From the IMG/VR virus record IMGVR_UViG_3300010375_000006, positions 1 through 43,856 of that record: DNA of 43,856 nucleotides. One strand, given 5' to 3'. How positions within the stretch are numbered: the stretch's first letter is position 1; each line of letters opens with the position of its first letter. Positions 8,937 through 41,800 of this stretch are shown here, one piece after another. The notes below the pieces were generated by a model, which was not told where the DNA came from, searched no databases, and saw only the letters and a program-made list of their open reading frames with translations. Position numbers and translations under genes: made by a program. This DNA is from a virus.

Positions 8937-9142
8937 GCGCCCGCCCCACCAACGAGATCAGCGCCACCAACCGCGCATTCCTTCTCCTGATCTGTGCGCT
9001 GGTCTGGCTGGTTGTTGCTCCGGTCTTTTTCATTCGCGGCTTTTGCGCGGGAAACGACCCCAGCCGCAGCAAGTCCGATCGGGATGAAATTAATGTCCAT
9101 AGCGGTTCTTTTATAACGGGAGCGGAACGGGATCATGGCTGA
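8933..9142 (+). CDS. Small membrane protein (69 aa)
   Basis: GTGA coupling. TM segment AFLLLICALVWLVVAPVFFI. Confidence 0.45.
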   Translation: MSARPTNEISATNRAFLLLICALVWLVVAPVFFIRGFCAGNDPSRSKSDRDEINVHSGSFITGAERDHG

Positions 9143-9569
9143 TGGAACGCTTCCCGCACGGGATTCCATTGCAGCGCAGCGAGAGCTTTTCCGTAGAGCT
9201 GAGGCCGAAGAAGGCCTTTCAATTGCTGTGATTGCGAAGAGAGCGCCGCTTTCCCCCAATACCATGCGGGGCTGGCGTGACGGCTCTGCAATGCCAGCAT
9301 GGGCCATCGGCGCGCTCAAGCAGGCTGGGGTTCCCGATCACCTGCTTTCACTCATTCTGGAGCCGTTCGCCTGCTTCGTCGTGTCTGACGAAGACGGAGA
9401 GGGTGACCTGGATACCGCCGCGAACGACGCGTTGGAGTTCGCCACTGAAGTCAACAAGGCGCACCACCCGAACAGCCCTGGCGGCTTGGCGATCGTACCG
9501 CAAGAAAAGGCGGTGATCGAGCCAAAGCGGCAGCGAGCCTGCGCCTCAATACGGAGGGCCGCAGCATGA
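9135..9569 (+). CDS. Putative HTH regulatory protein (CII-position)
   Basis: EEGLSIAVIAKRAPLSPNTMRGW looks like an HTH. Acidic C-terminal half. The call rests on position and motif only. Confidence 0.5.
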   Translation: MADGTLPARDSIAAQRELFRRAEAEEGLSIAVIAKRAPLSPNTMRGWRDGSAMPAWAIGALKQAGVPDHLLSLILEPFACFVVSDEDGEGDLDTAANDALEFATEVNKAHHPNSPGGLAIVPQEKAVIEPKRQRACASIRRAAA

Positions 9570-9838
9570 TTGATCTGTTCCACGTAATTGAAGACGCCTT
9601 TGCGATCGTGCGCAAGCCGAAGGGCGTCTATGTTCAGGCCAAGTTATATCACCGCGCGGGCGTCGTTTATGTCGCTTACGGTAGCGGGTTCGTCCGCCTT
9701 GGCCAGAAGTTCGGCGAAAGCTGGGGCACCTCGCATCCGGACATCAAGGTTCTGGATTATGGCGGCCCCGGCGTAGAGCCACAGCATGACCCTGTTTACC
9801 TCTCTTCTCGCGCTCGTCGCATTCGCGCGGTGTCGTGA
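9566..9838 (+). CDS. Hypothetical protein (90 aa)
   Basis: Coupled ORF (ATGA). Confidence 0.55.
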   Translation: MIDLFHVIEDAFAIVRKPKGVYVQAKLYHRAGVVYVAYGSGFVRLGQKFGESWGTSHPDIKVLDYGGPGVEPQHDPVYLSSRARRIRAVS

Positions 9839-34933: not shown

Positions 34934-35605
34934 ATGAGCGGAGGCCCCATAGACTGGCCAGCAACCCAGCGCCTGTTGGGCGTGACCCCCGATGGCATTC
35001 CGGGGCGGCAAACCTATCTTGCGATCGTCGATCTCGTCGGCCAGCCATGCCAGCCCGTCGCCAATTGCCTGGCTAAATTCGCCCCCAGTTACGGCATGAC
35101 GACGCCGCCACGACTGGCTGAGTTCGTGGCGCAGATCGCGAACGAAACAGGCGGCTTCACTGTCTGGGAAGAAAACCTGCATTACAGCGCGGCCGGGCTT
35201 CTGCGCACATGGCCATCGCATTTCAATGCGGACATAGCCGAACGGTGCGCCGGCCAGCCGCTTCTGATCGCGGAACGGGCCTATGGCGGGCGCATGGGGA
35301 ACGGCCCAGAGGGCTGCGGCGAAGGCTGGAAATACCGCGGTCGCGGCGCGCTGCAGCTGACCGGCAAGGACGCCTATAGCAAGTTCGGCAAGACGCTGGG
35401 GATAGACCTGACTGCCCACCCCGAGGTGGCTGCAGATCCCTATAACAGCACGTTGATAGCGCTCGAATTCTTCAAGGAATTGCACGTCAACGATGCGGTC
35501 GATGCCGGTGATTTCGTCAAGGCGCGGCGGCTGACGAACGGCGGATCGATCGGGCTTGAGCATGTCGCAGAGTTGCGCGCCAAGCTGCTGGCGAAGCTGA
35601 TATGA
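34934..35605 (+). CDS. Endolysin: PG-binding domain plus glycoside hydrolase family 19 catalytic domain
   Basis: LGVTPDGIPGRQTYLAIV is the PG-binding motif. GH19 motifs: FVAQIANETGGF..WEENLHYS...YGGRMGNGPEGCGEGWKYRGRGALQLTGKDAY. Confidence 0.9.
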   Translation: MSGGPIDWPATQRLLGVTPDGIPGRQTYLAIVDLVGQPCQPVANCLAKFAPSYGMTTPPRLAEFVAQIANETGGFTVWEENLHYSAAGLLRTWPSHFNADIAERCAGQPLLIAERAYGGRMGNGPEGCGEGWKYRGRGALQLTGKDAYSKFGKTLGIDLTAHPEVAADPYNSTLIALEFFKELHVNDAVDAGDFVKARRLTNGGSIGLEHVAELRAKLLAKLI

Positions 35606-35889: not shown

Positions 35890-36131
35890 TGTTCAGCCTG
35901 ATCGCCCTCGCTCTCGCCAGCCAATCGGTATCGAAAGCCACTTGGGTCGATGTTTGTTCGGAGCGGGATAGCCCGCGCGCCTGCGCCCGAGCCATGCGGC
36001 GCTGGGACCGGATCGCCTACAAGGTCTGCGGCCCCGACGGCATGGTGGACTGGGATGGCTATCCCGGAAAACCGGCCTGCAACCGAAGCGGGTGGGACGG
36101 CCAGCGCTATCACCAAAAGGGGGCCGAGTGA
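35889..36131 (+). CDS. Secreted small Cys-containing protein (80 aa)
   Basis: Signal-like N-terminus MFSLIALALASQSVSKA. TGATG coupling. Confidence 0.5.
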   Translation: MFSLIALALASQSVSKATWVDVCSERDSPRACARAMRRWDRIAYKVCGPDGMVDWDGYPGKPACNRSGWDGQRYHQKGAE

Positions 36132-36544
36132 TGCCCATCTGGCTCCTCGGCGCCTGGCGCTTCATCCGCCCTCTTATGCCGTACATCGCCGCTGCGCTCG
36201 TCGTGCTGGGGCTGCTCTCCGCATACGGTCATCGGGAATATGGCCGGGGCAAGCATAGCCGGGACGCAGAGGTCGCGCGCATCACGCAGGACCGCGACAC
36301 GCACGCGGCGAACGAACGGATCCTGCAGGCCGCCCTGGACCGCCAGAACGCCGCTGTGGTGGCGTTGAAGACGGAAGCGGACCAACGGGTCGCGGCCGGT
36401 CAAAAGGCCGTCGCGGAGGTCCGTAAAGCGAACCAGAGCCTGCAAACACAAGCAGAGATGCTGCGCCGATCCGGCAACAAGGCGGTCCCGAAGGATCGGC
36501 CATGCGTGCCGAGCCCCGCACTCGTGATGGTGGGAAAGATATGA
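36131..36544 (+). CDS. i-spanin (Rz-like)
   Basis: N-terminal TM segment (IAAALVVLGLLSAY) plus a coiled-coil periplasmic domain. Followed by a lipoprotein gene. Confidence 0.7.
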   Translation: MPIWLLGAWRFIRPLMPYIAAALVVLGLLSAYGHREYGRGKHSRDAEVARITQDRDTHAANERILQAALDRQNAAVVALKTEADQRVAAGQKAVAEVRKANQSLQTQAEMLRRSGNKAVPKDRPCVPSPALVMVGKI

Positions 36545-36804
36545 AACGCGCCCTTGTCCTCGCGCTGGCCCTCTCGTCCTGCGCCACGCCACCAGCACCC
36601 CAGATCGTCACCAAAGAGGTGAAGGTCCCCGTGCCTGTTGCTTGTGTCAACAAAGCCGCGGTTCCGATCGAACCAGATGCCGTTGTGATCCCGCTGACGG
36701 ATGCCCGCCTCGCCGCCGACATCGCTGCATCTCAGGCGCTCAAATACAAGGCCTGGGGGCGCGAGCTTTACGCGCTGATCGTGCCAGCCTGTACAAAGGA
36801 ATAG
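36541..36804 (+). CDS. o-spanin (Rz1-like lipoprotein)
   Basis: Lipobox in MKRALVLALALSSC. Pro-rich mature N-terminus. 4-nt overlap with the i-spanin (separated architecture). Confidence 0.75.
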   Translation: MKRALVLALALSSCATPPAPQIVTKEVKVPVPVACVNKAAVPIEPDAVVIPLTDARLAADIAASQALKYKAWGRELYALIVPACTKE

Positions 36805-36808
36805 CGTC

Positions 36809-38107
36809 ATGCAAATCGGCGTCAACCTATCTCCGCCCCGTCCATTCGGAGAACAGATGTTCATGAACCTGATGCTCCAATCGGGGGCATTGCAGGGCGG
36901 CGGGGTCCAGGTTGTCGCCCCGGATAGGCGAGGGCTGGACTATGCCGTATCGATCCCGCCAGAGTTCGCAGGCATGGTCAAGCAGCAGCCATGGGGCCTC
37001 TCGATCGACCCCAGCGTAACAGCCGTCCCGAACATGATCTATGCCCGTAAAAGCGATATCGGGCTGATCAAGGCCGGGCAGGTATTCCGAACCCAACAGC
37101 TCAACATCCTTCGCCCCATGGCCTGCATCCGGTTCATGGATTGTATGGCCACCAACGCCAACCAGACGCCGTTCTACACCGCCTCGATCGGCGATACGTC
37201 CTACGTCCACGGCATGCCGGTTCCGGTGATGGCGATGCTGTGCAACACGGTCGGGGCGGATGCGTGGATCAACATCCCGGTCCGTATGTCGGATGCGGAT
37301 GCGAAAACATTGGTCGTGTTGTTCCGCGAGTTGCTGGACCCCGGCCTGAACCTCTACGTCGAGTTCTCGAACGAGGTGTGGAACGCGACCTATTGGGCGA
37401 TGCACTACGCCAATGAGCAGGGCAACGCGAAATGGCCCGCCGATCCTACAGCCAGGAAACAGCCCCCCAATGCCGGCCAGCGTTGGTACGGCATGCGCTG
37501 CGCCCAGCTTTCCGCCGCCGTAGCAGGCCCCGGCATCCGGTTCGTCATGGGTACGCAGACCATGAACCCCGGCCTCGCAAAGGCTGTCCTGCTGGGCTTT
37601 GACGAAGCTGGCGGGGTCAACGCCAACGTCTATGGCTGGTCGTTCGCGGCGTATGTGGATGGGGGAATCAAAGGCGACAAGCTGGTTGCCCTGTCGGAAG
37701 CCGGGGATATTCCTGGGGCGATCGATGCCCTGATGAACGATCCGGTCCGCGGCATGCCAAAGATGCGGACGATCTACACGCAGCAGGCCGCGATCGGGGC
37801 GTCCAGAGGATGGGAACCGGTTGTTTACGAAGGGAACACCAGCCTGATCGCGCGTGGTATTGCAGATCCGGCAGCGAAGGCAAAAGCCATTGCGTTCGTG
37901 AAGGCGGTGACCGAGGACGAACGCGTTGCCCCGGTGCATGAAGCCAACCTTGCCGCGCTGAAAGCCGCTGGCGTCGTCCTGTGCAACCTGTTCAATACGA
38001 GCGGTGGGCCGGGAGAATATGGTTATTGGGGGCTCGTCCCGTCATTGGATCATCCGGAGGGAAATCCAGCCTGGCAGGTGGCGCGGAAGTGGGCGCTTGC
38101 GGCTTAG
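36809..38107 (+). CDS. Putative (beta/alpha)8 clan GH-A-like glycoside hydrolase, no signal peptide
   Basis: YVEFSNEVWN is a candidate acid/base NE motif. WEPVVYEGNTS is a candidate nucleophile Glu. It is the last gene of the late operon, after the spanins. AAGGAA RBS. Confidence 0.5.
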   Translation: MQIGVNLSPPRPFGEQMFMNLMLQSGALQGGGVQVVAPDRRGLDYAVSIPPEFAGMVKQQPWGLSIDPSVTAVPNMIYARKSDIGLIKAGQVFRTQQLNILRPMACIRFMDCMATNANQTPFYTASIGDTSYVHGMPVPVMAMLCNTVGADAWINIPVRMSDADAKTLVVLFRELLDPGLNLYVEFSNEVWNATYWAMHYANEQGNAKWPADPTARKQPPNAGQRWYGMRCAQLSAAVAGPGIRFVMGTQTMNPGLAKAVLLGFDEAGGVNANVYGWSFAAYVDGGIKGDKLVALSEAGDIPGAIDALMNDPVRGMPKMRTIYTQQAAIGASRGWEPVVYEGNTSLIARGIADPAAKAKAIAFVKAVTEDERVAPVHEANLAALKAAGVVLCNLFNTSGGPGEYGYWGLVPSLDHPEGNPAWQVARKWALAA

Positions 38108-38283
38108 CCCTTAAGCACCTCATCAGTTCCATCCGGGTGTCTGTAAACAGGAATGCCGGGGTCGGAGGGGCGCTTGAACCACTCAAGCAACTTATCTGCC
38201 GCGTCCAAATCGTTTTGGGTTGTGTGTCCCGCAATAAACCCAAGCTCCCGTAGTTTGGCGACCAACGCCTCTCGCTCGCTCAC
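38104..38283 (-). CDS. Micro-ORF, 59 aa (not in track), last gene of the accessory operon
   Basis: My translation: VSEREALVAKLRELGFIAGHTTQNDLDAADKLLEWFKRPSDPGIPVYRHPDGTDEVLKG. AGGAG lies 8 nt upstream of the GTG. Its stop overlaps the stop of the convergent GH gene. Confidence 0.55.
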   Translation of the reverse strand: MSEREALVAKLRELGFIAGHTTQNDLDAADKLLEWFKRPSDPGIPVYRHPDGTDEVLKG

Positions 38284-38462
38284 GGCTTACTCTCCTGTTC
38301 AAGGGTGGATAGCAGTTCATTGGCAAGCACTGCCAACGCTGCACCCTGCATCTTCCGCGTGCCGTCCTTCTCTGCGTCTGCCTGCCTGTCGTATGCAAGG
38401 GCGCGATGGACGATGTCGAGGTGTAGCCTCTTTAGGATGGCGTCAAGGGCGGCGGTGGCCAG
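38280..38462 (-). CDS. Coding-like frame without a canonical start (CTG start or TGA read-through product)
   Basis: The frame is open from the in-frame TGA at 38475..38477: NRRELATAALDAILKRLHLDIVHRALAYDRQADAEKDGTRKMQGAALAVLANELLSTLEQESKP. It ends in a GTGA overlap with the next gene. Confidence 0.35.
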   Translation of the reverse strand: MATAALDAILKRLHLDIVHRALAYDRQADAEKDGTRKMQGAALAVLANELLSTLEQESKP

Positions 38463-38474
38463 CTCGCGGCGGTT

Positions 38475-38708
38475 TCACTTGGTCGCCTCTCGGATGCGGT
38501 AGTAGATAACATCTCCCGTCCCGAAACGGTGTTGCCATTGCCACGTATCAGCGCGTCGCGGACCGGACTGAACATGCAGACCATTGCGCATCATCCTGAA
38601 CCTCACTTCTACAAGCGTATCAGGCGGGACCGGACACTCTCCACCGCCCCACAGCTTCCAGCCGCGCCAATAGCCAGGAGGCACTTTTTCTTTCGGGTCA
38701 GCCATCAT
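38475..38708 (-). CDS. Hypothetical Trp-rich protein (about 77 aa)
   Basis: MMADPKEKVPPGYWRGWKLWGGGECPVPPD...TWQWQHRFGTGDVIYYRI. GGAGG lies just upstream of the tandem ATGs. The longest ORF extends to 38750 (TTG). Confidence 0.6.
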   Translation of the reverse strand: MMADPKEKVPPGYWRGWKLWGGGECPVPPDTLVEVRFRMMRNGLHVQSGPRRADTWQWQHRFGTGDVIYYRIREATK

Positions 38709-38774
38709 CTCCTCCCCGCACGGCTTCGGCGGTACCCAGCCTTTCCGCAAGCGATAGCAGATCCTGAGGGGTCG

Positions 38775-39023
38775 TCATGCGGGCAGACATTCGAACAGTT
38801 GACCATCATACGACAGGCTTGCGCGCATCGCGGAAACGCGCCTTTCCGCCTCCGCCTGATCATACGCCCAAACCTCGGTGGAATATGTTTTGCCGTCCAT
38901 CTCATAGCTGAGCAGGAAACAATAAAGCGGCCGGCCATATTCATCCTTGCGGACAAATTCAGAGGATGGCTGTGCCGCCGCATTTCTACGCGCCGTTAAG
39001 TCTATGATTTTGTCGTCGTCCAT
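38775..39023 (-). CDS. Hypothetical protein (82 aa)
   Basis: AGGAG lies 9 nt upstream of the ATG. No motif recognised. Confidence 0.6.
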   Translation of the reverse strand: MDDDKIIDLTARRNAAAQPSSEFVRKDEYGRPLYCFLLSYEMDGKTYSTEVWAYDQAEAERRVSAMRASLSYDGQLFECLPA

Positions 39024-39056
39024 CTCATCATCTCCTATACGGACGGGGGGAGGGGT

Positions 39057-39374
39057 TTACCCGATTGCCAGGATTGCAGCACGCCATTGCTCGATCATCT
39101 CGGCTGTTCTGGCCTTCATGTCGAACCGCCCGCAAATCGGAGCCTTCATGGAGGGCCCGCGCGATCGGCCCCTATCATGGTATTCCTTCGGGCAAGCTCG
39201 CGTCATCCAAAGACGGCACGAACCACACTGCCGTTGAGCATCCCGAATACGCGCCTCAAGCTCTCGGCGCTTCTGCTGGTTCTGAGACCATTGGCTGAGC
39301 GACGTCGCCCAATCCCAAAGCTCTGTCCCGCTCGGCGAAACTTCGCGTGGCGGTTCCGGTACATGCGCGCTCAC
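39057..39374 (-). CDS. Hypothetical Cys-containing protein (105 aa)
   Basis: CGSCRLWMTRACP...APICG. GTG start with a GGGAGGGGG stretch upstream. Confidence 0.55.
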   Translation of the reverse strand: MSAHVPEPPREVSPSGTELWDWATSLSQWSQNQQKRRELEARIRDAQRQCGSCRLWMTRACPKEYHDRGRSRGPSMKAPICGRFDMKARTAEMIEQWRAAILAIG

Positions 39375-39420
39375 ATCCCCCTCCCATCATATAATACAGG
39401 GGTGGGGGAGGGGTGGCGGG

Positions 39421-39615
39421 TCATAGAGGCACCTTTTCGAAAGAGGGGGCGCATCGCCCAACAAGCGGGAGCCACTGGTAGCCGGTAACCCGCATCCATG
39501 CGTGATGCGTGATGCGTTCCTGCACTGCCCCACAATTGGCGCAGCGGCGCTTGATGGGCCCCAAGATGCCATTTTCTTCGGAGGCATCGGCCCACCTGTG
39601 CTTCACGACCTTCAT
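39421..39615 (-). CDS. Hypothetical zinc-ribbon-like protein (64 aa)
   Basis: MKVVKHRWADASEENGILGPIKRRCANCGAVQERITHHAW. ATGA coupling. Confidence 0.5.
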   Translation of the reverse strand: MKVVKHRWADASEENGILGPIKRRCANCGAVQERITHHAWMRVTGYQWLPLVGRCAPSFEKVPL

Positions 39616-39716
39616 ACCAAAAACCCGATAGCCAGCCCGATGACTAGCCACGTCAAGCCGGACAGCACTTGAACCGGATCACGCCAATAGGCCCGCTCAA
39701 TGATAGTGTTGCTCAT
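39612..39716 (-). CDS. Micro-ORF, 34-aa membrane peptide (not in track)
   Basis: My translation: MSNTIIERAYWRDPVQVLSGLTWLVIGLAIGFLV. ATGA overlaps at both ends. Confidence 0.45.
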   Translation of the reverse strand: MSNTIIERAYWRDPVQVLSGLTWLVIGLAIGFLV

Positions 39717-40009
39717 GACAGGGTCTCCGCGTGCTCGGCTGCTCGGGCCTGATGCGAGAAAGTATGCACTTTCCCATCACGGCCGAATCCGCCGTTGCGC
39801 TTCAAATACATCCCGCACTCGTTAACGATGACGTAGCGGCGATACCGCCCCTGATAATGGGTTGCGACCGTGTACCGAAGCGCCTCGCAACCCCATGACC
39901 AGATCGCGCCAGTTTCAGGATCGCCGTCGTCACTAAACCACTCGTTCCGCAGCTCAAATGGCGTCTCCATCGGCGTGACCTGAATGCGGCGGTTGCGGGG
40001 CTGAAACAT
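39713..40009 (-). CDS. Hypothetical protein (98 aa), first gene of the accessory operon
   Basis: ATG 40009 has GGAG upstream. No motif recognised. The longest ORF extends to 40072, across the promoter region. Confidence 0.6.
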   Translation of the reverse strand: MFQPRNRRIQVTPMETPFELRNEWFSDDGDPETGAIWSWGCEALRYTVATHYQGRYRRYVIVNECGMYLKRNGGFGRDGKVHTFSHQARAAEHAETLS

Positions 40010-40025
40010 TGCCTTGTCTCCGTAA

Positions 40026-40083
40026 AGCATATGCTCTAAATACAGCATATGGCTTTGGACGCAATAGCGCATATGCTAAATAA
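40026..40083. promoter_or_regulatory. Three GCATATGC-type palindromic operator candidates within overlapping divergent promoters
   Basis: AGCATATGCT (40026..40035), AGCATATG (40044..40051) and CGCATATGCT (40068..40077). Plus strand: TTGGAC(40055)-16-TAAATA(40082). Minus strand: TTGCGT(40064)-16-TATTTA(40037). Confidence 0.5.
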
Positions 40084-40138
40084 TTCCACCTTGGATGAAA
40101 AAGGCACATGCGATACGCCCCGCCGCGTGGGCAGGCGC

Positions 40139-40282
40139 ATGGAATATCCTGAGAAGCGGGAGGCGGCGTTTAAGCCGGGGACGCTAGATCGCATCCAAGG
40201 GGCTTTGCGCGACGATGAAACACAGGTCGGCTTCATCCGCGAAGCCGTGGAGCGAGAGCTGGAACGGCGGGCGAAAGGCTGA
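40139..40282 (+). CDS. Ribbon-helix-helix regulator candidate (47 aa from ATG 40139)
   Basis: FKPGTLDRIQGALRDDETQVGFIREAVERELERR has the RHH layout. The longest ORF starts at 40049, which lies upstream of the predicted plus-strand -10. Confidence 0.5.
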   Translation: MEYPEKREAAFKPGTLDRIQGALRDDETQVGFIREAVERELERRAKG

Positions 40283-40296
40283 TCAATCCGCCCCAA

Positions 40297-40315
40297 GTGG
40301 GTAAAATAGTGGGCA
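40297..40315 (+). promoter_or_regulatory. Arm-type repeat pair (GTGGGTA / GTGGGCA), left of the attP core
   Basis: Direct heptamers at 40297 and 40309. Confidence 0.45.
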
Positions 40316-40337
40316 GGCTCTCTAGCTATACAGCCTC

Positions 40338-40361
40338 GTTCGAATCCCACCCTCTCCGCCA
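40338..40361 (+). other. attP core: 3' end of a tRNA (T-loop, T-stem 3' strand, acceptor 3' strand, discriminator G, CCA); Ser-like, tentative
   Basis: GTTCGAATCCCACCCTCTCCGCCA. The sequence 5' of it cannot form the T-stem or the rest of a tRNA. Confidence 0.7.
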
Positions 40362-40449
40362 GTAATCTTTCGCCGGGGTTCGCTGGCGACCGCATTCCCC
40401 TCCTGTAGCGCGACTTTTGTTCCACTGACGTTCGCTTGCGTTCGCCGCC

Positions 40450-41664
40450 GTGCGCGGTCCATACGTGGGCAAACGGTGGGCAGAGAATCGGACTGTGGGC
40501 AGATTGACCGCTCGGAAGGTGGAGACGCTCAACGAACCGGGGCGTTATTCCGATGGGGACGGCACTGGTTTTCATCTGCGAGTCACGAAGGAAGGCGGCA
40601 AATATTACGTCCTGCGCACTACGGTGCAGGGTGAGCGGAAGGACTTCACGCTTGGTTCGGCCAAGCGAATCACCCTTGCAGCGGCGCGAGCGAAGGCGGC
40701 TCTTATTCAAGAAAGCCTCGATGCTCATGGCAAGGTGCTGCCCACCGAAATGCCCACTTTCGCCGATGCGTCCCGTTCTGCCCACAAGGCGCTCACGGCC
40801 GGGCTCCGGAACATCAAGCATAAAGCGCAATGGCTCTCCACGCTGGAAACATATGCTTTCCCCGTGGTGGGCGATAGGCCGATCAACGAGGTTGAACGCG
40901 CGCACGTCGTTCAGATCCTGTCCCCAATCTGGCTGGAAAAGCGCGAAACGGCCGACAGGACGTTGCAACGCATTGACCGGGTGATGAGCTGGGCTGTCGG
41001 GCATGGATTCCGCAACAGCAGGGTAGACATGGCCTTGGTCCGCGATGCCCTCCCGCGCCGTGGCAGGCGCAAGCGCTCCGAGATACGCCGTATGCCAGCG
41101 GTGCCCTGGGCCGAAGCGCCGGCTTTCTTCGCAGCGATACCAATGAGCCGTAGTGTAATCGAGGTCCGCCTGGCGATGACCTTTTACCTGCTCACCATAC
41201 CAAGGCCGGGCAATATCTATCTCGCCAAGCGCGACCAGATCGACTTGGCTGCCGCTGTGTGGAGCATACCAGACGAGGAAATGAAGGCTGGGGAGCCGCA
41301 TCGCATTCCGCTTTCGCCGGCCGCGGTGGAGGTCGCTCGTTCCATAATGGACATGCACGAACACGAATTGCTGTTCACAGTCTCGGGCAAGCCAATGTCG
41401 CCAGATACGCTTAGGATGATGATGCGTCGGATGGGGCGAACTGAGACACCGCACGGGTTTCGCTCCACCTTCAAGGACTGGGCCAGAGCCTCCGGATACC
41501 CTGACGACCTTAGCGAAATGGCGCTCGCCCATGCCGATCCTAACGAGGTGCGCGCCGCCTACGCGAGAGATGATCTACTCGAAGAACGGCGCCCTATGAT
41601 GCTTGCTTGGTCGGCATATTTGGCAGGGTTTCCGCATACGCGAGCAGGGACTTCACAGGGATGA
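40450..41664 (+). CDS. int: Tyrosine integrase (P4-type, with an N-terminal arm-binding domain)
   Basis: GRLTARKVETL..PGRYSDGDGTGFHLRVTKEGGKYYVLR is the arm-binding N-terminal domain. The C-terminus carries HGFRSTFKDWA...ALAH......AYAR catalytic motifs. The true start may be GTG 40495. Confidence 0.92.
   Translation: MRGPYVGKRWAENRTVGRLTARKVETLNEPGRYSDGDGTGFHLRVTKEGGKYYVLRTTVQGERKDFTLGSAKRITLAAARAKAALIQESLDAHGKVLPTEMPTFADASRSAHKALTAGLRNIKHKAQWLSTLETYAFPVVGDRPINEVERAHVVQILSPIWLEKRETADRTLQRIDRVMSWAVGHGFRNSRVDMALVRDALPRRGRRKRSEIRRMPAVPWAEAPAFFAAIPMSRSVIEVRLAMTFYLLTIPRPGNIYLAKRDQIDLAAAVWSIPDEEMKAGEPHRIPLSPAAVEVARSIMDMHEHELLFTVSGKPMSPDTLRMMMRRMGRTETPHGFRSTFKDWARASGYPDDLSEMALAHADPNEVRAAYARDDLLEERRPMMLAWSAYLAGFPHTRAGTSQG
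40465..40501 (+). promoter_or_regulatory. Arm-type repeat triplet (GTGGGCA x3), right of the attP core
   Basis: Heptamers at 40465, 40476 and 40495. The last one contains the alternative int start GTG 40495. Confidence 0.45.
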
Positions 41665-41800
41665 CCGTGGAGCGGCCCTGTTTCTTGGCCTCGATCTTGC
41701 CGGCGTTGATCAGCTCGTAGAGGTATGTCTTGCCGCACGCGAGCATGGCCGCGCCACGGTCTGGACTGACGAGAATGGGATATTCGTTGTCGTTCATCAC
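41594..41800 (-). CDS. xis: Excisionase / AlpA-family HTH protein
   Basis: LVSPDRGAAMLACGKTYLYELINAGKIEAKKQGRSTVIPVKSLLAY has the MerR-type excisionase layout. It is the last gene of the leftward operon and overlaps the int 3' end. Confidence 0.7.
   Translation of the reverse strand: MMNDNEYPILVSPDRGAAMLACGKTYLYELINAGKIEAKKQGRSTVIPVKSLLAYAETLPNMPTKQAS

Follow-up and report, generated by a model that had tools for sequence, protein, structure and literature searches.

This article concerns a row of eight small open reading frames (ORFs), g1 to g8, that reads leftward beside the integration module of a temperate phage. The phage is known from IMG/VR virus record IMGVR_UViG_3300010375_000006, a complete genome with terminal repeats present, and the stretch that we analyzed, called the window throughout, is that record at its full length of 43,856 nucleotides. 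In our judgment, which is about evenly balanced between belief and doubt, the block is a set of early-type accessory genes, acquired independently of one another and held in a swappable cassette that is gated by its own repressor; they would probably be expressed in a burst and then shut off. An earlier note on this DNA had described the block as separately regulated, swappable cargo. That description is borne out by a divergent promoter/operator region, by a small repressor dedicated to it and by the different cargo that related phages carry in the same place.

The scheme we have in mind is as follows. The conserved, mobile part of the cassette would consist of two back-to-back promoters, four operators and the gene for a ribbon-helix-helix (RHH)-like repressor of 51 residues, read rightward. 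Next to it in this phage come attP, int and xis, and the genes on the left would be read from the leftward promoter of the cassette. The cargo here would be seven small unrelated genes acquired independently (g1 to g6 and g8) together with a truncated g7. When the genome enters a cell free of repressor, or when induction dilutes the repressor, host RNA polymerase would fire both promoters, and the small proteins would be made in a burst while the repressor accumulates. The repressor would then bind sites 1 and 2 over the block promoter and sites 3 and 4 over its own, turning both down, and in a lysogen the autoregulated repressor would keep the block low. We infer the repression, the timing and the function of the block from the evidence laid out below.

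The palindromes that had been noticed in the intergenic region to the right of the block are real, and their placement is not random. Over 43.9 kb, exact GCATATGC is confined to 40027 and 40069, with single-mismatch copies at 40045 and 40104, and there are four operator-like sites (coordinates of these and other features are collected in Table 1). We infer the leftward block promoter from its sequence: site 2 lies in its spacer and site 1 over the -10/+1 region. The candidate promoter of the repressor gene is the sole sigma-70-like match in 37500-41000; site 3 sits in its spacer and site 4 in the 5' untranslated region. Because the operators overlap the core of the block promoter, the arrangement predicts repression, not expression, of the block in a lysogen that makes the repressor. 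All four sites are placed to repress, so the repressor should shut down its own promoter as well as that of the block.

The repressor (MGRRMEYPEKREAAFKPGTL...FIREAVERELERR) is a probable RHH-like protein. Its gene could be started at ATG 40049 or 40073 (giving 77 or 69 residues), readings that we replaced by GTG 40127, because the resulting M-G-R start is conserved across the family (as ATG or GTG, in about 60 homologues) and because 40073 lies upstream of the predicted -10 element. An AlphaFold2 (AF2) model built from 61 sequences has a predicted local distance difference test score (pLDDT) of 86 and consists of an extended arm followed by two helices, the second carrying a motif, FIREAVEREL, that resembles CopG-type proteins. 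Matches to Pfam RHH_1 and to the NCBIfam family YlcI/YnfO fall below threshold, and no PDB entry was matched, either by sequence profile or by fold. YlcI/YnfO (NF041551, from Escherichia coli cryptic prophages) is weakly similar over the two helices, below its curated cut-off, with an E of 1e-3 for the window repressor and 2e-5 for its relative at locus L029. Its members are likewise small prophage proteins encoded after lysis genes; we found no functional data on them in the literature.

Much of what can be said about this protein comes from its relatives. When metagenomes were scanned with the small protein, 80 loci encoding relatives of the repressor came up, mostly from soil and rhizosphere, and the same layout is present at about 60 distinct metagenome loci and in the Caulobacter phage DMCA; two scans of GTDB genomes gave no repressor relatives. 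The leftward start lies 108-124 nucleotides before the repressor start in 38 of the 61 loci where it could be called (118 in the window). Between the two starts runs a common scaffold. Its left part comprises the leftward start codon with CTCC, site 1, TAxxTA, site 2 and GTCAATAG (TTGAC on the minus strand). Its right part continues with site 3, AAAAT, a conserved CTTGGCAGAAAA, site 4 and (A/G)TGGGxCG, which encodes the M-G-R start. The GTCAATAG column is how the -35 element of the block promoter, TTGAC(C/G), shows itself in the relatives.

The four sites of any one locus share a single 6-bp core, and the core differs between loci. It does so in step with the repressor, for the operator core changes together with the residues that immediately precede a conserved Phe in the N-terminal strand. 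Thus MEYPEKREAAF goes with the core GCATATGC (8 loci), INxEQTPARF with TGATATC (10 loci; DMCA has the same core, its repressor arm not having been compared), QINEEQIPARF with GATATCATC (7 loci), INDPDEKxTARF with TGGTGGCA (3 loci) and INHEKTMARF with TGGTATC. Several further operator classes exist, and the cores include CATATG, GATATC, GGTGGC, GGTATC and GATATCATC. This co-variation of repressor and operator is the best evidence that the small protein would bind these sites.

The cassette also moves. L002, a complete phage with an integrase 84% identical to that of the window, is homologous to the window only over a module that comprises the operators, the repressor gene, attP, the integrase gene and an excisionase-like gene. 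Beyond the module, the first 20 kb of the window (the part compared) share some 450 bp with L002, at window positions 9124-9575. Homology so confined indicates that integration and regulation are exchanged as one unit between unrelated backbones. The left edge of the homology is placed with some precision, within the GGAG ribosome-binding site of g1, 9 nucleotides upstream of its start codon. To the left of that edge L002 has seven small leftward genes, unrelated to those of the window, and L026 (integrase 82% identical) and L004 have different small-gene blocks again. Apart from a 19-residue motif found in g8, the three blocks have no gene in common with that of the window. On the right flank of the relatives there is an integrase in some loci only (7 Pfam integrase matches among 107 ORFs).

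Across the whole family, related phages fill the slot with different genes, and the block is not conserved as core, which is what became of the suggestion in the earlier note that it might be exchanged for other cargo. At an E of 1e-3 or better, 136 of 142 cargo ORFs (from about 45 loci; median length 92 residues) are singletons. The first leftward genes of about 65 loci make up 51 groups with no relation between them, of which 43 are singletons; the one exception is an integrase-like cluster in a distant subfamily. The cargo differs even among loci of one operator class. Where cargo of the relatives matches a family at all, the matches are to orphan DNA methyltransferases, HNH endonucleases, a PAPS-reductase-like protein, T5orf172/MUG113, DUF4326, DUF5131, DUF4031 and helix-turn-helix (HTH) proteins, and the flanks hold orphan methyltransferases and a Lar-like gene. 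PADLOC matches among this cargo are of the methyltransferase type, with one SspD (the PAPS-reductase-like protein) and two isolated candidate components; none makes up a complete system. Two cargo ORFs, L004 4601-5026 and L030 3135-3521, cluster together by blastp. By eye, a partial ORF at L089 1-216 belongs to the same family, and these three would then be cargo recurring in different orders, shuffled within a shared pool.

Turning to the block itself, seven of the eight ORFs are credible genes, judged by start codon, by ribosome-binding site or ATGA/GTGA coupling, and by codon usage. The earlier note had counted eight leftward genes. All the frames exist on the minus strand where it put them, but 38280..38462 (g7) fails as a gene. 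We trained a codon model on the long genes of the phage and scored each ORF in six frames; the proposed frame scores highest of the six for all eight, with the GC1/2/3 pattern typical of the phage. The coupling and good ribosome-binding sites that had been claimed are there in the sequence: ATGA overlaps join g1 to g2 (39713-39716) and g2 to g3 (39612-39615), a GTGA overlap joins g7 to g8 (38280-38283), and GGAG-type sites precede g1, g4, g5, g6 and g8.

That none of the genes has a recognizable motif holds for most of them. None of the eight proteins matched anything in Pfam, PADLOC or NCBIfam, and g2, g3 and g8 have no relatives apart from the g8 motif. The claim does not hold for g5 and g6, which match PHROGs families (the only such matches in the block, both to families of unknown function), and isolated phages turned out to have homologues of g4, g5 and g6 when the concatenated block proteins were run by tblastn against GenBank phages. 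The eight genes occur together nowhere outside the window, and the block is a patchwork that would not form one multi-protein system.

The first gene, g1, belongs to a very rare family. Its GGAG sits 8 nucleotides before the ATG. A search of 5.8e9 proteins matched only g1 itself, and a full HMMER scan of 1.8e9 cluster representatives found four small singleton homologues from metagenomes, with an identity to g1 of 33-41% by MAFFT alignment and 37-44% by phmmer. These four distant homologues all begin MF.P.NRN, which supports the start at 40009. Matches to long repeat proteins (RAP/Ig repeat proteins) we rejected as spurious, and a single-sequence AF2 model, at a pLDDT of 39, is unusable. Next come g2, a membrane peptide, and g3, which is possibly a zinc ribbon; g4 presumably binds zinc. 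The last has GGAGG 5 nucleotides before its GTG start. It matches virulent jumbo Caulobacter phages and is 42% identical, with all four Cys kept, to CcrSC_gp464 of one of them, CcrSC (Dolichocephalovirinae). In the gap between g3 and g4, a C-rich run on the minus strand (39375-39420) can pair with the g4 ribosome-binding site GGGAGGGGG in a hairpin of -22.5 kcal/mol that does not stand out from shuffled sequence (z -1.5) and may be due to chance.

The homologues of g5, 34-41% identical, are EVC05_076 of Rhizobium phage RHph_N2, in a nin-like region, and STOPSMEL_17 of Sinorhizobium phage StopSmel, in a Mu-like early region. The Trp-rich domain of g6 is widespread in phages: in Schitoviridae, where it lies inside the replication module, in Jilinvirus phages, where it is part of larger proteins, and in Klebsiella phages. 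It forms the C terminus of the annotated polynucleotide kinase of HN01, a Burkholderia phage of the Schitoviridae (L005 2273-2755), and in another protein, P0011, it is fused to Pfam DUF3310 (PF11753), with DUF3310 C-terminal. By eye, the N-terminal half of the HN01 protein is DUF3310-like, which would be the opposite domain order to that of P0011. The joining of the g6 domain and DUF3310 in P0011, and apparently in the HN01 protein, suggests that the two domains work together.

It is a comparison with a metagenome contig, L089, that tells us what g7 and g8 are. The noted g7 ORF opens on CTG and has no ATG, GTG or TTG until 23 codons before its stop; it has the strongest codon signal of the block and continues the frame of g6 across a single TGA at 38475-38477. 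One might therefore take g6 and g7 for a single gene, expressed through programmed readthrough or recoding of that TGA, and the weakly similar stretch ELETACID with which the Jilinvirus homologues of g6 extend past the equivalent position would fit. We hold this to be highly improbable. Using the g6-g7 read-through as a query, we matched P0010, a protein of 102 residues encoded on L089, the last 60 residues of which are 97% identical to g7, from ATAALD onward. This intact homologue has its own ATG and an unrelated N terminus of 42 residues. DNA identity between L089 and the window, again 97%, starts at 38460, 15 nucleotides after the TGA, which marks a recombination junction, and no protein spanning both the g6 and g7 parts was found. 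We have dropped the one-gene reading: P0010 and L089 point to g7 as a shortened copy of a gene with its own start. To judge from this comparison, g7 is a 5'-truncated recombination remnant, with 60 of 102 codons kept and the first 42 codons and the start lost. The same contig identifies g8 as a mosaic, for g8 shares only its first 3 codons and a 19-residue stretch, SDPGIPVYRHPDGTDEVL, with a protein of 185 residues on L089. At the DNA level that stretch is 96% identical (window 38169-38114, 56 nucleotides, against L089 837-892). SDPGIPVYRHPDGTDEVL, at L026 330-386, also ends an ORF of L026 that is DUF551-like by eye; common to three otherwise unrelated proteins, it represents either a linker left by recombination or a short motif with a function.

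A remnant and a patchwork gene, in a family of blocks whose cargo is extremely diverse and hardly shared, invite the thought that the block is largely functionless mosaic filler: hitch-hiking ORFs and fragments tolerated at a recombination-prone, non-essential junction between modules. That g1, g2, g3 and g8 have few or no relatives would agree with this. The frames, however, all keep phage-like codon usage, with intact ribosome-binding sites and translational coupling; g4, g5 and g6 are conserved, with invariant residues, across distant phages; and in about 60 loci blocks of this kind stand under a dedicated regulatory cassette that is itself strongly conserved. We regard filler as a distinctly unlikely explanation.

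The block adjoins the end of a long late operon on the plus strand, which closes with a GH19 endolysin, spanins and a protein of 432 residues. To its right, beyond the repressor gene, the integrase domain of the tyrosine integrase and the HTH_17 domain of the excisionase-like protein were confirmed. With the tRNA fragment of attP on the plus strand, the tRNA would be restored beside int (attL) on integration, and the block and the small repressor gene would be left at attR. The earlier note had placed the block at the attR-proximal end of the prophage; the orientation of the tRNA 3' end and the converging late gene agree. The late gene and g8 meet so closely that their stop codons overlap at 38104-38107 (TAG 38105-38107 on the plus strand, TAA 38106-38104 on the minus strand). 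With no detectable terminator, this means that there is no intergenic space and that each convergent unit would read antisense into the other. We found no significant terminator-like hairpin at this junction, and no hairpin in the g3/g4, g4/g5 and g5/g6 gaps or at the end of g8 beats shuffled sequence. An Rfam search of 37900-40600 gave no match, the block has no DNA similarity to GenBank phages, and close relatives of g1, g4 and the 432-residue neighbor were not found in IMG/VR. Relatives of the endolysin are too distant to be informative. From the homologues, the likely hosts are Alphaproteobacteria such as relatives of Caulobacter or Rhizobium.

Table 1. Features of the window discussed in the text, from left to right
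Feature	Position	Strand	Remarks
GH19 endolysin	34934-35605	+	Late operon
Spanins	36092-36804	+	Late operon
Last late-strand gene, 432 residues	36809..38107	+	No family match; converges on g8
Leftward block, eight ORFs g1-g8	40009 down to 38104	-	Adjoins late operon end
g8, 59 residues, mosaic gene	38104..38283	-	GTG start overlaps g7 stop; own AGGAGAG ribosome-binding site
g7, start-less 3' fragment	38280..38474 (noted ORF 38280..38462)	-	In frame behind g6 TGA
g6, 77 residues, Trp-rich domain	38475..38708	-	phrog_9174 (E 1e-14), phrog_26870, phrog_16943
g5, 82 residues	38775..39023	-	phrog_2920, E 8e-8
g4, 105 residues	39057..39374	-	Four conserved Cys (CGSCRLWMT..CP...C); GTG start
g3, 64 residues	39421..39615	-	CxxC + HH + C; ATGA overlap with g2 stop; no significant family match
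g2, 34-residue membrane peptide	39612..39716	-	C-terminal hydrophobic helix LSGLTWLVIGLAIGFLV; start overlaps g1 stop
g1, 98 residues, first leftward gene	39713..40009	-	Rare family, function unknown
Intergenic region right of block	40010-40126		Precedes small plus-strand gene
Mobile module: operators, repressor gene, attP, integrase, excisionase-like gene	40018..41797		80% DNA identity to L002 5568-7345
Four operator-like sites (1 to 4)	40023-40038, 40041-40056, 40065-40080, about 40100-40113		Core (G)CATATG(C)
Candidate block promoter	40037..40064	-	TTGCGT (40064-40059), 16 nucleotides, TATTTA (40042-40037); read from sequence
Candidate repressor-gene promoter	40056..40084	+	TGGACG-17-AATAAT
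RHH-like repressor (probable), 51 residues	40127..40282	+	GTG start
tRNA 3' end (attP)	40338-40361	+	Between repressor gene and integrase
Tyrosine integrase	40450-41664	+	Integrase domain
Excisionase-like HTH_17 protein	41594-41800	-	HTH_17 domain

This position at the prophage end had led the earlier note to propose a moron or lysogenic-conversion cassette, or an anti-phage system built of small proteins. On such a view the genes would be expressed in the lysogen from their own promoter, to the benefit of the host through, for example, superinfection exclusion or small-protein defense. The block would be the last segment before attR, it has a host-type promoter region to itself, what it contains differs from phage to phage, it includes the membrane peptide g2, and an autoregulated repressor permits low steady expression. 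Morons are defined by a flanking terminator and a deviant base composition. Other accessory regions of temperate phages include the b and nin regions of lambda and the semi-essential early region of Mu. There is a likeness to such regions: the genes here, too, are short, mosaic and to all appearance dispensable, they vary between genomes that are otherwise related, and the g5 homologues come from just such places, one nin-like region and one Mu-like early region. The signature of a moron is only partly present: there is a promoter region at 40037-40084, yet no terminator after g8 and none flanking the block, and codon usage is that of the phage. Base composition is ordinary, with a GC content of 0.587-0.595 in the block (0.59, against about 0.61 for the genome and 0.58-0.65 elsewhere in the window). 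The block differs from a moron, too, in being tied to a dedicated cassette of repressor and operators, which moves together with the integration module, and the operators sit on the promoter core.

Nor does the content of the block speak for a defense system. PADLOC gave 0 matches at E<=0.01 for the eight ORFs, the repressor and the 432-residue neighbor, and the PADLOC matches in the cargo of relatives are those isolated ones described above. The genes never co-occur elsewhere, and two of them are recombination debris. Homologues of g4 and g6 occur in strictly virulent phage groups, and those of g5 in early or nin-like regions. A moron, lysogenic-conversion or small-protein defense role is not supported by these findings, and we consider it unlikely.

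Back-to-back promoters under an RHH-like repressor also bring to mind a second immunity region. In the immI region of P22, the RHH repressors Mnt and Arc control Pant/ant. By analogy, the small protein here would silence a leftward antirepressor, g1 or another gene, and the diversity of operators would reflect hetero-immunity. The two regions share a repressor of RHH type (here a probable one), palindromic operators on back-to-back promoters, a repressor gene divergent from the operon, and a site near the end of the late region, outside the main immunity region; operator specificity is split into many classes, as immunity determinants are. Against this stand the one repressor gene here versus two in P22, and a window repressor in which no sequence similarity was detected either to Arc (hhalign probability 0.2%) or to the RHH structures in the PDB. 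Domains of the antirepressor type (ANT, KilAC, Bro, P22_AR) are absent from g1 to g8 and from the 142 cargo ORFs, where a single T5orf172/MUG113 protein was all that turned up, and the leftward genes are hypervariable: the first of them differs at almost every locus, even within one operator class. The repressor family, moreover, adjoins many different backbones. We find an immI-type function very unlikely. A type II toxin-antitoxin system with an RHH antitoxin we rejected, since the arrangement is divergent and no toxin family is represented in g1 to g8. Antirepressor, toxin-antitoxin and defense readings all want for supporting domains.

This leaves the repressor-gated cassette of early-type accessory genes as the reading we favor, and several points weigh against it. 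A generic sigma-70 scan did not call the leftward block promoter, the -10 hexamer of which is imperfect. No cargo protein of the window matches a known anti-defense or host-takeover family. Negative autoregulation sets a steady state, not zero, and some expression in the lysogen is compatible with it. The neighborhood of attR, finally, is the classic place for lysogen-expressed cargo. Because no cargo protein matches a family of that kind, the functional class of the block has to be read from the contexts in which its homologues occur. By analogy with these, the likely roles of the cargo would be in host takeover, as helpers in DNA transactions or in counter-defense, with each gene acting alone.

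Among known systems the closest concept, by analogy, would be the Aca-controlled anti-defense locus, with P22 immI as a second analogue. Through repeats lying across the -10 element, the RHH-type protein Aca14 represses its own and neighboring anti-defense operons (PMC13551039, Nucleic Acids Res 2026). Aca loci and our cassette both have a small conserved repressor beside short, hypervariable genes of mostly unknown function. In both, repeats overlap the promoter core (binding here being deduced from co-variation) and the repressor would control its own and a neighboring promoter, and the logic of an expression burst followed by shut-off would be the same. The differences are that the regulator is the last gene of the cargo operon in Aca loci, whereas the repressor gene of our cassette points away from the cargo; that one inverted repeat there is replaced by four sites here; and that the cargo of the window has no known acr or anti-defense gene.

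The nearest relative in culture is Caulobacter phage DMCA (PQ480021.1), which has the same cassette, placed after lysis and tail genes. Three small leftward ORFs (DMCA_038c-040c) are followed by the RHH-like DMCA_041 and the integrase DMCA_043c; the cassette genes are all annotated as hypothetical. GATATC-type sites stand on the same scaffold, with three full copies and a degenerate fourth position. DMCA differs from the window in this GATATC operator core and in its cargo, which is unrelated. It also has an insertion sequence (IS)-type transposase between the RHH-like gene and the integrase gene (L091 4681-6000), which interrupts a module that the window has in one piece.

Taken by themselves, the eight ORFs are ordinary phage 'dark matter'; what is of use is the repressor-plus-operator cassette attached to them. 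It is compact and widely spread, and its DNA specificity has diversified in step with the recognition strand of the repressor. The presence of the same cassette in a cultured Caulobacter phage makes the scheme testable in culture. If bursts followed by repression are indeed what it delivers, the cassette would provide a guilt-by-association handle on new early and counter-defense genes in phages of soil and rhizosphere Alphaproteobacteria. It would also offer a ready-made family of matched repressor/operator pairs and a clear case of mosaic exchange exactly at a ribosome-binding-site boundary. A bolder proposal, tentative and to our minds somewhat on the unlikely side, is that the cassette is the counterpart, in alphaproteobacterial phages, of the Aca anchor. 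It would then mark a pool of immediate-early counter-defense and host-takeover genes (more than 140 mostly unique small ORFs from some 45 loci, with g1 to g6 and g8 among them) controlled by orthogonal switches. Were that true, the co-varying repressor/operator classes would keep resident prophages from cross-repressing incoming phages.

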